From assembly GCA_964609035.1 (NCBI GenBank), contig CAZSQL010000003.1, positions 4,058 to 68,057 on the forward strand: a stretch of 64,000 nucleotides of DNA, written 5' to 3'. Position 1 is the first letter of the stretch, and the number at the start of each line of letters is the position of its first letter. Shown here piece by piece: positions 5,991 through 35,668 of this stretch. The stretch is from an uncultured Candidatus Peribacteria bacterium (GTDB taxonomy: Bacteria > Patescibacteriota > Gracilibacteria > Absconditabacterales > Absconditicoccaceae). The notes under the pieces were generated by a model that did no database searches, was not told the DNA's origin, and saw nothing but the letters and a program-made list of their open reading frames with translations. Made by a program: the position numbers and the translations under genes.

Positions 5991-6188
5991 GGGGCTTCTT
6001 CATCTTTAAAAATAAGAAAAATCCAAATTGGGATACATATCCTCACCCCGCAATTCTGCGGGGTTCAGTCATCTAACAGCCACTATCCGACATCTTCGTT
6101 ACACTCAGACATCGGACCATCGGCAAACGTTATACGTCATAGTCCCATCTATAAAAAAAACATAAAGAGACAGGAAGAGCTCTTTTTT
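5991..6188 (+). ncRNA. Candidate structured RNA / repeat element, family member A
   Basis: 5' GCUuCUUC pairs with 3' GAAGAGC. Internal TAAC..GCC..GGC-AAAC-GTTA helix covaries with members B and D. Carries the CCCCGCAATTCTGCGGGG hairpin (6046-6063). Ends in the palindrome AAGAGCTCTT plus a T-run. Confidence 0.35.
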
Positions 6189-7767: not shown

Positions 7768-7806
7768 GCTGACCGAACCCCGCAGAATTGCGGAGAAATG
7801 ATCAGC
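7768..7806 (-). promoter_or_regulatory. Stem-loop in the TR-to-RT spacer of the DGR RNA
   Basis: Outer stem GCTGACC/GATCAGC (with a G-T pair) encloses CCGCAGAATTGCGG (7778-7793). Lies between the TR end (7814) and the RT start (7748). Confidence 0.5.
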
Positions 7807-31291: not shown

Positions 31292-31682
31292 GGGGATGTA
31301 CAGGCTTCGATGAAAGATTCTCATATCTAATAACTGCCACTACTCGATGAGCGTACCGAGTATACTAATCGCTCAGCATCTAAAAATGCAAACTCAAAAA
31401 ACTTGTTAGCGAGAGCTAACGCCTTCGTTTTGAACTACGCTTAGTTCTACGATTGTATCAACCGGTTCTGCTAGACACCTACTAGGTAGACGGAGACATA
31501 AGTAGGTACCGCTACCTCTGGTAGCAAATGTCGATATGACAAAAAATCCATTGCCTGTTTGTTGGCTTTTGGATTTGCCAGTCATAAGGACACTAAATCT
31601 ACGGCTTAATAAACAAACTATTGTGGTAAGCGTTATTATTTATGTCTTTTAGACGCGAGTTCGACTCTCGCCATCTCCACCA
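31292..31682 (+). ncRNA. ssrA: tmRNA (transfer-messenger RNA)
   Basis: 5' GGGGATGTACAGGCTTCGATG..., 3' ...GGACGCGAGTTCGACTCTCGCCATCTCCACCA (T-arm plus acceptor). Candidate tag frame GCA AAC TCA...TAC GCT TAG gives ANSKNLLARANAFVLNYA. Confidence 0.9.
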
Positions 31683-31716
31683 AAAAAGATGAATCATAAA
31701 GACAAAATACCAAAAT

Positions 31717-31745
31717 CTCAGAGAGCAATCTTTGAGGTTTTTTTA
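31717..31745 (+). terminator. Terminator after tmRNA
   Basis: CTCAGAG-AGCAAT-CTTTGAG (one G-T pair) followed by GTTTTTTT. Confidence 0.55.
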
Positions 31746-31819
31746 GTTTGAAAATGATTTGAAAAAGAATATATGAGAGATAAGAATTTATTTTTTTAGT
31801 ATAAAATATTTTTAATAAA

Positions 31820-32161
31820 ATGAAAATAAAAGAACTGCAAAAATTAGTTACAGATTTTAGAGATAAAAGAGACCGAAAACAATTTCATAATCCAAAAGAT
31901 TTAGTAGAGGCTATTTCTATAGAATGTTGAGAACTAATGGAGCATTTCCTTTGGAAATCACAACAAGAATCACAAAAAATTGCGGAAAATAATAATGATA
32001 TTGCAGAAGAATTTGCTGATATAATGAACTATTTATTATTATTCGCGGATATTTGTAATATAGATATAGAAGAATCCATTATCAAAAAGATCAAAAAAAA
32101 CAATTTAAAATACCCTGTAGAAAAATCTAAATGAAAAAGTGATAAATACAATAAACTTTAA
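31820..32161 (+). CDS. MazG-like nucleotide pyrophosphohydrolase
   Basis: 113 aa. FRDKRD(CGA)KQFHNPKDLVEAISIECGELMEHFLW...EEFADIMNYLLLFA, the all-alpha NTP-PPase pattern. Confidence 0.75.
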
Positions 32162-32184
32162 AATTTTTAATCAAAAAATATAAT

Positions 32185-33795
32185 ATGTGAGCTACTATAA
32201 TAGATATTCCATTCAATAAAAAAGAAATAGACTGATTTATGTATTATCATCGAGATTATGATAGTCGACCAGTAGTTTATCTTATAAAAGGAGAAAAACA
32301 TATCTATATTGGAGAAACAACGAATGCTTATAAAAGGATGAAAGATCATCTAAAGAATACAGAAAGAACAGATTTATTAAATGAAGTATTAATTTTATAT
32401 GATCCAGAATATAATAAATCAGCCACATTAGATATAGAATCTAAATTAATAGAATATATTTCTGGAGAAGATTCCTTTATTTTACAAAACAGAAACGATG
32501 GAATAAGGAATCATCAGTATTATGATCGTGAAAAATATCTTGCCAAATTTGAAGACGTGTGGAAAGACTTACAGAACAAAAGAATAGTATATAAAGATTT
32601 GAATGAAATAAGAAATAGTGATTTATTTAAATATTCTCCATATAAATCACTAAATAACGATCAATATAATGTTGTTACAGAAATATACGAAGATATTAAA
32701 AACAAAAGAAATTGAACATATATTGTTAATTGAGAACCAGGTACATGAAAAAGTGTTGTAGCAAGCTATTTAGTAAAATATTTAAAAGATAAAAACGATA
32801 CAAAGAATTTGAAAGTTGGTCTTGTTGTCCCTATGGCATGATTAAGAAATACTTTTAAAAAAATCTTTAAAAATATAGATTGATTGAAATCTAGTATGGT
32901 TATTTGACCAAATGAGATTGCAAAAGATTATTCAAACACAAACAAAACCCCATATGATATATTAATTGTAGATGAAGCTCACAGACTACAAAAAAGAAAA
33001 AATATAATGTGATATGGTGCTTATGATGATGTTAATAGAAAACTATGATTATCAAAAGAATCAACTCAATTAGATCGATTAATTAATTTATCAAAAACAC
33101 AAATATTATTTTATGATAAAAACCAATCAATAAAACCATCAGACGTGAATTCAGAAGATTTTGAAAAAATTAAACAAACAAAACATTATGTTTTAAAAAG
33201 TCAGATGAGAGTTAATTGATGAAATGAATATTTGAATTTTATAAATAATTTTTTCGATTGATTAAATCCAGATTTTATTAAAGTAAAAAATTATGATTTT
33301 AAATTATTTGATAATTTTAAAGATTTTAGAAATAATATCTTAGAAAAAGATAAAGAGTTCTGATTGTCTAGAATAGTCGCTTGATATGCACGATCACGAA
33401 CTTCTAAAAATAACCCCAATCAACATGATATAGAAATAGATTGAGTAAAAATGTTTTGGAATACTACAAATAAAGATTGGGTAAACTCTGAAAACGCTTT
33501 ACATGAAATATGATGTATTCATACTGTACAATGATATGACCTAAACTATGTATGAGTAATTTTATGAAATGAGCTATCTTACAATAAAGAAACTGGGGAA
33601 TTTATTATTAATAAAGATAATTATTATGATAAAAATTGAAAGAATTGAATTACAGATATGTATGAATTAAAAAGATATATAATAAATATATATAAAACCT
33701 TAATGACACGCGGGATTAAATGAACTTATATATATGTGGTAGATGATAATTTAAGAGAATATCTAAAAAGTAAAATAAAGTGATTTTTTTACTAG
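32185..33795 (+). CDS. GIY-YIG nuclease domain fused to DUF2075 (Schlafen-like) P-loop ATPase/helicase
   Basis: 536 aa. VVYLIKGEKHIYIGETTNAYKRMKDH (GIY-YIG), NGEPGTGKS (both Gly TGA), ILIVDEAHRL, SQMRVNGG, AGYA(CGA)S(CGA)TS, IHTVQGYDLNYVGVILG. The start may instead be 32239. Confidence 0.75.
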
Positions 33796-33816
33796 ACCCC
33801 AGGGTCTAACAAAAAT

Positions 33817-33984
33817 CTATCTTCCCCTTCCCCTAGCTCCTCTACTATTCTGAGACCTATTCAAATCGCCATCAGTCCTTCTAGGTTTTTTGTGAATTCT
33901 TTTTGGACCATATCACTCCTGTGACTGAGAATCTCTCCTTGGTGGATATTTTTTTGGTCATTCTGATTTATAATGAGACGCCAT
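33817..33984 (-). CDS. Basic RG-rich ORF, in frame with and probably once part of the helicase C-terminal tail
   Basis: MASHYKSEGPKKYPPRRDSQSQEGYGPKRIHKKPRRTDGDLNRSQNSRGARGRGR. Same frame as 34081..35385 with only one TAA (34081-34083) between them. Confidence 0.3.
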
Positions 33985-34017
33985 GAAAAATTGAATAATT
34001 GAAATTTTTCAAACGTC

Positions 34018-34113
34018 GAATTTATACCGACAGATATTAGAAACTTTTAGATCAACCCCGCAGTATTGCGGGGGAAGAGATTAAAAATTTCTAATGCGCT
34101 TCGGTATAAATTC
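34018..34113. repeat. 96-nt imperfect palindromic element overlapping the helicase stop codon
   Basis: GAATTTATACCG/CGGTATAAATTC (12 bp), ATTAGAAA/TTTCTAAT (8 bp), apical CCCCGCA-GTAT-TGCGGGG (34056-34073). Length is a multiple of 3. Confidence 0.75.
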
Positions 34114-35385
34114 ATCTTTTTTGTCTCCACTTCTACGATCATTTCTATTGTTGGGACGAAAATCTTTTTTTTTGTCTACAGAAGGAGTAGCATTACGAGT
34201 ACTTTTACCTCATTTTTTATCAGTAGATCTATTTAGACGAATATTATCAAATCTTCATTCCTTGTCATGTACTACTATATGCTCAGAAGGTTTTATGCTA
34301 ATCTTGTGCATTTTCTCTATCTCCTTTACCAATGGTCATTCCAATGGAGAAACAAGCATGATAGCTTTTCCATAAGCACCAGCTCTTCATGTCCTACCAA
34401 TTCTGTGGATATAACTTTTGGCATCTATAGGCACATCAAAATTGATTACAAGTCATACATTTTCCATGTTAAGTCATCTTGCAGCTACATCAGTAGTCAC
34501 AAGCACCTTCAGTTTCCCTTGCTTAAAATCATTTAATGTTCATTGTCTTTTATTCTGCGACATGTTACCATTTAACATACCAACATTAAATTGATTTTTC
34601 ACCAAAATATCCTGAATAGTCTTGGTGTTTCTTTTTGTATGAGTAAAAACAATCACCTTTTCCCTGGAATGAGTCTGGATTAGTTGAATCAAATTAGATA
34701 ATTTATGCTCATGATCTACAGCTAGATATCTATGATGTATCTTGTCTACTGTCACAGTCTCCCCTATTTTGATAAATTCATAGTCTGTGATATGCTCTTT
34801 TATAATTTCTTTCATATCATTGTTCATAGTAGCAGAAAATGTGAAAGTTTGTTTGATATTTTTCATTTGAGCCCAAATTTTTCTGATATCACGGACAAAT
34901 CCCATGTCCAACATCATGTCTACCTCATCCAAAACAAAATATTTTACACTACTTAGACTTACTTCTCATTGACCGATAAAATCCATTAGCCTACCTGTAG
35001 TAGAAACAATAATAGATGGCTTCCTTTTTAAATTTTGCTTTTGAACATTGATACTAGCTCATCCATAAAGACAAGTAGAAGTCACCCCATAGAATTTAGT
35101 CAATCACCTAATTTCATCTCATATTTGAGCTACCAATTCTCTAGTTGGAGCCAATATCAAAACCTGTAAAGACCTGTCATTGGTATCTACTTTGTTCAAT
35201 ATCGGTATAAGAAACGCCGCAGTTTTACCTGTTCACGTCTGAGATTGTCATACAATATTTTTTCAAGCAAGTGCTACAGAAATAACTTTCTCTTGGATTG
35301 GCGTAGCATGTACATATCACATATTAAATATAGACCTCAATAATCCATTCTTCAATCAAAATTCACTAAACAACATAGAAAACAT
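34081..35385 (-). CDS. DEAD-box ATP-dependent RNA helicase
   Basis: 434 aa. [46 protein letters not shown], then a basic tail. Confidence 0.85.
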
Positions 35386-35536: not shown

Positions 35537-35668
35537 TTGGTCACATTCGTCAGGATTATTGTAATTAATAAACATACATTTCAAATTGAAACTTAAGGAA
35601 GCGAGCCTATGCGAGATTCCTTCGTATTCATTATTTCATTTTCAATTCAAATGTATGACTGTGACCAA
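35537..35668. other. Long (about 130 nt) imperfect hairpin, candidate sRNA or palindromic element
   Basis: CTTGGTCACA (35537-35546) pairs perfectly with TGTGACCAAG (35659-35668). Inner CATACATTTCAAATTGAAA pairs with TTTCAATTCAAATGTATG. Apex AAGGAAGCGAGCCTATGCGAGATTCCTT. Confidence 0.5.

Follow-up and report, generated by a model that had tools for sequence, protein, structure and literature searches.

The window analysed here, a 64,000-nucleotide stretch of DNA, comes from an Absconditabacteria (SR1) bacterium in which TGA encodes glycine (assembly of 1.16 Mb in 83 contigs, 95% complete). On its complementary strand, at 34081–35385, it carries a gene for a DEAD-box RNA helicase, which in its present form encodes 434 amino acids under genetic code 25 and matches Pfam DEAD (6.2e-48) and Helicase_C (5.3e-33); the boundary of its native part is set by the empty-site alignments described below. 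The region can be read solely with code 25, because the motifs GTGKT (within SQT-G-TGKT) and HRIGRTGRAG (HRIGRT-G-RAG) both span TGA codons. The two RecA domains contain the complete DEAD-box (SF2) motif set, i.e., Q, I (GTGKT), Ia (PTRELV), II (DExD), III (SAT), V, and VI (HRIGRTGRAG). Motif II (34915–34926) reads DEVD rather than DEAD, as it does in all close orthologs (P0001–P0005, G016, and G018), and the close homologs carry the source names Absconditabacteria or candidate division SR1. The start of the gene has no obvious Shine–Dalgarno sequence. On the complementary strand, the frame now ends at a TAA (34081–34083) that lies inside a strong palindrome; past this stop the same frame stays open for 87 codons to a TAG at 33817–33819 and finishes with the RG-rich sequence ...NSRGARGRGR. 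The first-pass annotation of the window had described this arrangement, and it is upheld by code-25 translation.

On the 3′ side of the helicase gene, the window contains a tmRNA gene (31292–31682), then a MazG-like ORF, and then a gene for a 536-amino-acid GIY-YIG and Schlafen-group-3 helicase protein (32185–33795), convergent on the helicase gene. A native hairpin just 3′ of the original TAG (TTAGACCC..GGGTCTA, 33786–33815) is common to all three of the intact metagenomic loci introduced below, and synteny with them stops beyond it: in place of 31292–33795, they carry RhuM/Bro-N/NYN (L057), DUF2202/HTH_38 (L033), and Bro-N (L036) genes. Because synteny with the intact loci breaks exactly there, the interval between ssrA and the helicase gene appears to be a variable site for accessory or defence genes.

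The palindrome around the TAA has arms at 34011–34049 and 34082–34120, with the apex CCCCGCA-GTAT-TGCGGGG at 34056–34073, and its predicted RNA fold (−45.1 kcal/mol, z = −7.2) was equalled by none of 200 shuffled sequences. It had been proposed that a 96-nt palindrome was the inserted unit. The palindrome is real, but the true insert is a 136-nt element at 33971–34106 (complementary strand) that forms two hairpins and is accompanied by a duplicated TA; the GAA/TTC at the outer edge of the 96-nt palindrome lies outside the repeat family to which the element belongs. These borders were defined with three metagenomic loci (L033, L036, and L057) from which the element is absent and whose identity to the window within the gene is 93% for two of them and 85% for the other. 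All three align to the window as far as 34107, where homology stops, and resume at 33970 (L036 and L057) or 33963 (L033). The two alignment pieces of L036 and L057 share exactly two nucleotides (TA) in the empty site, with which L033 is consistent. The empty site thus reads GATGAATT-TA-AATCAG and the window GATGAATT-TA-[136 nt]-TA-AATCAG, so that on the complementary strand the left and right copies of the TA target-site duplication occupy 34107–34108 and 33969–33970, respectively. The net insertion, i.e., the element together with the duplicated TA, is 138 nt or 46 codons, a multiple of three. Upstream, L057 and the window remain collinear over 6.3 kb (93.2% identity).

The orthologs of the helicase were collected by searching a protein database with the two flanks of the window joined as the query. 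The proteins P0001, P0002, and P0126, encoded at L033, L036, and L057, carry the helicase and the tail as one protein, and they run on into the tail rather than ending at the stop of the window. The last 45 residues of P0001 (490 amino acids) are identical to the downstream frame of the window; P0002 (473 amino acids) reads ...DKKDE-FK-SEG... across the junction; and P0126 and P0123 (476 and 455 amino acids, the latter without the first 21 residues) read ...DKKDEFRSEG...RGARGRGR. Joining the window's flanks yields a protein of 476 amino acids with no gaps relative to its closest relative. Its 94-residue tail aligns without gaps to those of P0126, P0123, and P0002, indicating that the ancestral protein was 476 amino acids long. 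Among the seven proteins that cluster at 90% identity, the window's is the sole truncated one. These element-free, intact orthologs and the base-exact empty sites support the earlier suggestion that a hairpin element inserted in frame has truncated an RG-rich tail. The C-terminal ends of the closest orthologs (RGARGRGR, RGSRGRVR, RRAARGR, and RRRCRKR) keep the Arg/Gly-rich type, and the more distant P0005 and G018 have no such terminus. In P0001, P0122, and P0125, the tail contains a 19-codon tandem duplication (SEGPRKYPPRRDGQSQEGNG / SKKYPPRRDSQSQEGYG; 4271–4327 of L033) that the window, P0002, and P0126 lack; the length of the tail varies through repeats.

The insertion was also recovered in a second assembly. 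A 1641-nt contig in the Logan assembly of SRR5581382 is 100% identical to positions 35620–33980 of the window; it runs through the helicase and across the left junction into the element, of which it covers 127 nt before breaking, as expected, inside the repeat. The right junction is seen in the MAG contig alone, but there the helicase tail resumes precisely at the TA, a continuity that no chimera would produce. Judged from these sequences, the insertion is not an assembly artefact.

On the gene strand, the element begins with TACCGAAGCGC at its 5′ end and finishes with GGCGTCTCATTA at its 3′ end, and its single-stranded DNA is predicted to fold into two hairpins (−32.3 kcal/mol, z = −8.3). Hairpin 1, a 90-nt palindrome (TTTATACCGA...TCGGTATAAA; 34021–34110, complementary strand), is the core of the 96-nt palindrome and consists of the 5′ terminal repeat paired with an internal third copy of that repeat (GTCGGTATA), which closes the hairpin. 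A motif scan of the window showed that hairpins like its GC-rich apical stem–loop (34056–34073) also occur at 6046–6063 and 7778–7795 (CCCCGCA-nnnn-TGCGGGG at three unrelated sites; chance expectation, 0), and this stem–loop seems to be a small module common to different hairpin families. Hairpin 2 (TTCGACGTTTGAAAAATTTC...AATTTTTCATGGCGTCTCA; 33974–34020, complementary strand) corresponds to one of two alternative 3′ modules of the family, the beta module, and has an ATG (33982–33984) in its 3′ arm. Its pairing is held across genera, with 93.8% of cells paired and four pairs showing compensatory changes, and its covariation score was reached by none of 500 shuffles, with slid controls scoring far lower. 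Each of the three frames on the gene strand of the element contains at least one stop, and no Pfam match was found in it. An Rfam search of positions 33500–34500 (E ≤ 10) returned chance-level matches only, so the element does not correspond to any known RNA family, and because a promoter and terminator scan within the element found nothing, an outward promoter or canonical terminator is unsupported.

The element belongs to a family of approximately 15–20 copies in the 1.16-Mb genome, which share inverted termini and differ in their internal modules. Our search of the assembly identified copies with 83–92% identity on contigs C1 (three), C10, C2, C18, C33, and C39, together with partial copies, and alignment of the long copies showed that the common unit runs past the palindrome through TTCGACGTTTGAAAAATTTC...TTTTTCATGGCGTCTCA(K)TATA. 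The family's 5′ end is TATACCGAACCGC(W)TTAGAAA, and its terminal inverted repeats are TATACCGAACCGC at the 5′ end and GCGGTCGAGTATA or GGCGTCTCAGTATA at the 3′ end, an inverted match with one indel; individual copies end in GGCGGTCGAGTATA or GGCGTCTCAGTATA, which is the 5′ end inverted and complemented, again with one indel. In the window's own copy, the 3′ terminus matches the inverted 5′ end less well than it does in the family consensus. The 3′ module is either alpha (CTCTCTCATCCATCCCGAAATTTCGGGATTGGCGGTCGAGTATA) or beta, the version in the window. Some copies contain nested mini-palindromes, and three C1 copies carry an extra one, 19 nt long and GC-rich (CCTGCCTGCCGCAGGCAAG), between the two hairpins. 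In compound copies (G000 C1:53005–53221 and L076 4292–4485), hairpin 1 encloses either an alpha-type module or a different small hairpin, and in a second subfamily (C6, C7, C13, C16, C25, and C30) the interior is filled by units resembling CCTGCCTGCCGCAGGCAAG, CCTGCC..GGCAGG.

The copy in the helicase gene is the sole one inside a real coding sequence; the remaining copies in the genome are all intergenic, and several start 2–10 nt past a stop codon (G000 C1:7911–7921, C18:14369–14372, and C5:40010–40012). This distribution suggests that the family prefers an AT-rich TTTA/TAAA context at gene ends, a target that the insertion into the helicase may have narrowly missed. The 5′-terminal 21-mer occurs 15 times genome-wide, compared with no occurrences of the reversed control, and one to three copies were found in each of four other genera. 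In a collection of species representatives, six of seven matches were short two-hairpin elements, from SR1, Absconditabacterales, and Patescibacteria MAGs; the seventh, in an unclassified bacterium (L073), had no element structure. The copies in the other genera and these six matches are 115–195 nt long, and all copies found fall within 115–220 nt. In a full-text literature search, no paper was found that connects MITEs to Absconditabacteria or Gracilibacteria, and the family has therefore probably not been described before.

Downstream of the element, on the complementary strand at 33817–33969, lies the orphaned tail of the helicase, 50 codons (KSEGPKKYPP...NSRGARGRGR) followed by the original TAG, in frame and intact. 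Its nucleotide identity to L057 and L033 (93.3–94.8%) equals that of the helicase core, indicating that it has undergone no extra decay. The present protein consists of native residues 1–426 and eight element-encoded residues (IPKRIRNF), after which the element's TAA follows. What it has lost are 50 residues (16 K/R and 5 D/E), including the Arg/Gly-rich terminus, and approximately 40 residues of the basic linker are kept. The remnant now appears as an intact ORF of 55 codons (33817–33984), the ATG of which belongs to the repeat, given that the common unit of the family extends beyond the palindrome. At the corresponding position, the copies of the element read CATGG, CACGG, CATTG, CATAG, and others.

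We consider it very probable that a non-autonomous, 136-nt MITE-like insertion with a TA duplication truncated the helicase and, as part of this reading as a whole, that the 55-amino-acid ORF is an artefact of the ATG within hairpin 2. The sequences show the insertion itself, its borders, the TA duplication, the multi-copy family, and the intact orthologs. The element entered the gene near its 3′ end, at a site resembling TTTAAA, and would have been moved by a cut-and-paste enzyme of the DDE (IS630/Tc1-like) type that was supplied in trans. Because the net gain was 138 nt, the downstream tail stayed in frame, a one-in-three coincidence, and translation would end at the element's TAA after the eight element-encoded residues, giving 434 amino acids instead of the ancestral 476. 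The downstream 50 codons would then be a young remnant that has not yet decayed. The basic C-terminal extensions of the bacterial DEAD-box proteins RhlE, DeaD, and CshA help RNA binding, and by analogy the truncated helicase may be a hypomorph with weaker non-specific RNA tethering. The event is an ordinary MITE-type insertion by a family that is apparently undescribed.

The undecayed state of the remnant could also be taken to mean that one gene has been split in two, the 434-amino-acid helicase and a basic RG peptide of 55 amino acids translated separately from the element-borne ATG (33984). This ORF is intact, its ATG lies 96 nt beyond the helicase stop, and the helicase start, having no obvious Shine–Dalgarno sequence, implies that initiation here may not need one. 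However, the hairpin that holds the ATG in its 3′ arm is conserved, whereas the ATG itself varies among the copies of the element and in the other copies opens unrelated ORFs with no common product; no promoter-like site was found within the element; and the ORF has neither a Pfam match nor a stand-alone homolog in the protein collection. A young insertion explains the undecayed remnant equally well, and we regard a split gene as very unlikely. The first-pass annotation had also allowed that the element truncates the tail conditionally, in which case some tail would still be made by readthrough of the TAA, by ribosomes bypassing the hairpin (compare T4 gene 60 and the mitochondrial byp elements), or by precise excision in some cells. 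The preserved frame (138 nt), the single stop among the 46 inserted codons, the position of that stop within the 5′ arm of a highly stable hairpin, and the in-frame Phe codons just before the TAA and again downstream would fit such a device. Yet when the seven cluster members and three sequenced loci are compared, the insertion is found in this genome alone, and hence there is no sign of selection for it; the presence of at least one stop in every gene-strand frame indicates that the element is not built for readthrough; a preserved frame has a prior of one in three; and matching Phe codons mean little at 28% GC. Programmed bypass involves a conserved gap with matched take-off and landing codons and a joined product; here, matching Phe codons exist, and the insert is not conserved in relatives. 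Conditional truncation found no support and is scarcely credible, leaving plain truncation as the supported reading. A separate peptide, a readthrough product, or a bypass product would be marked by the peptide stretch KSEGPKKYPPRR....

Plain truncation by a MITE-like element leaves the question of how the element moves. It is short and non-coding, and has inverted termini, a TA duplication, dispersed copies, and a presence/absence polymorphism, the helicase site being filled here and empty in relatives; these are the operational features of a MITE. IS630/Tc1-mariner-type DDE transposases leave a TA duplication, and of the two marks of a MITE derived from them, the TA target duplication is present and the DDE_3 transposase was not found: DDE_3 (PF13358) had no matches in the 95%-complete genome. 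The matches to rve, DDE_Tnp_1, Y1_Tnp, and TnpB in this genome were few and all on contigs without element termini, and no autonomous IS with the same termini was found in the genome, around the copies from the four related genera, or in the species-representative collection. The element might instead be a site for structure-specific recombination or single-stranded DNA transposition (similar to attC, REPIN/RAYT, or IS200/IS605 PATE), with the TA as a crossover core or a coincidence. Consistent with this, it has two hairpins, the second of which covaries across genera as in structure-recognised sites, and the genome contains one Y1_Tnp-like and two TnpB-like ORFs in addition to having no detected DDE_3 transposase. 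Against it stand the clean 2-nt duplication relative to two independent empty sites, with which the third is consistent, and the clear terminal inverted repeats at the family level. An integron attC site bounds a gene cassette, with R″/R′ core sites and a linked integrase; the insert carries no gene, and what it has in common with candidate attC-like sites elsewhere in the window is the small GC apex, without the termini or modules. The Y1_Tnp (C20) and TnpB (C55 and C71) contigs lack the element termini expected of a REP/REPIN–RAYT or PATE system, and such systems make no target duplication. We keep a structure-specific mechanism as a minority possibility because hairpin 2 covaries, although it is unlikely. 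The most far-reaching variant, in which the copy inside the gene acts as a switch that is reversible or leaky (through precise excision at the TA, bypass, or reinitiation) instead of being a dead-end mutation, and the family is moved by a new structure-reading enzyme of Absconditabacteria, strikes us as highly improbable; if it were true, part of the population or of the ribosomes would still make the tail-bearing helicase.

The TnpB-, Y1_Tnp-, and DDE_Tnp_1-like frames of this genome (G000 C55:1526–1726, C71:1747–1950, C20:4766–5005, and C62:180–596; 314–479 amino acids) contain no in-frame TGA, unlike the typical genes of this genome, and may have been acquired recently or belong to short contigs that contaminate the bin.

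In itself, an insertional truncation of this kind is routine. Its value is that the base-pair-exact empty sites document the mobility of a small two-hairpin repeat family in Absconditabacteria/SR1, a candidate-phylum group with tiny recoded genomes for which our literature search found no description of MITEs. It is also a warning for annotation, as what look like a short helicase and a separate 55-amino-acid RG-rich ORF are a single gene cut in two. The 434- and 476-amino-acid forms constitute a natural allele pair with which the contribution of the Arg/Gly-rich tail to a DEAD-box helicase can be tested. Helicases of the RhlE, DeaD, and CshA type have a two-RecA core followed by a disordered Lys/Arg/Gly-rich tail. 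The window's helicase shares this core, with all the motifs, and its orthologs end in RGARGRGR, RGSRGRVR, or RRAARGR; it differs in its DEVD motif II and in a tail cut to approximately half its length.

Among known palindromic repeats, the ERIC insertions at the 3′ ends of Yersinia genes (PMC10969869, section 4.1) resemble the present family in placing a hairpin repeat at or just past the 3′ end of a gene, where by analogy it could alter the structure and stability of the mRNA 3′ end; the window's copy, however, lies inside the coding sequence. The Rickettsia palindromic elements (RPEs), which insert in frame into protein-coding genes (PMC10969869, section 4.2), are closer in this respect, as here too a palindromic element of approximately 140 nt entered, in frame, a conserved housekeeping gene in a host with a reduced genome, its net length (138 nt) being a multiple of three. 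Nevertheless, the RPEs have no stop in the host frame and are translated as part of the protein, whereas the window's element brings a TAA (34081–34083) that truncates the product, and its other copies are intergenic. Further precedents are prokaryotic MITEs such as the Correia elements of Neisseria and the pneumococcal RUP, which are small, non-coding, multi-copy sequences with inverted termini (PMC10969869). Like these, the family described here is approximately 100–200 nt long, forms hairpins when transcribed, is mostly intergenic with an occasional strain-specific disruption of a coding sequence, and duplicates TA at its target. It is unrelated to them in sequence and is distinguished by its layout of three terminal repeats and two hairpins, its interchangeable alpha and beta 3′ modules, and its nested mini-palindromes. 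It also differs in that no parent IS or DDE_3 was found, in having no evident promoter or IHF site, and in its host, a CPR bacterium that uses code 25. The insertion into the helicase gene is an event of the same kind as the strain-specific Correia insertions in Neisseria coding sequences.
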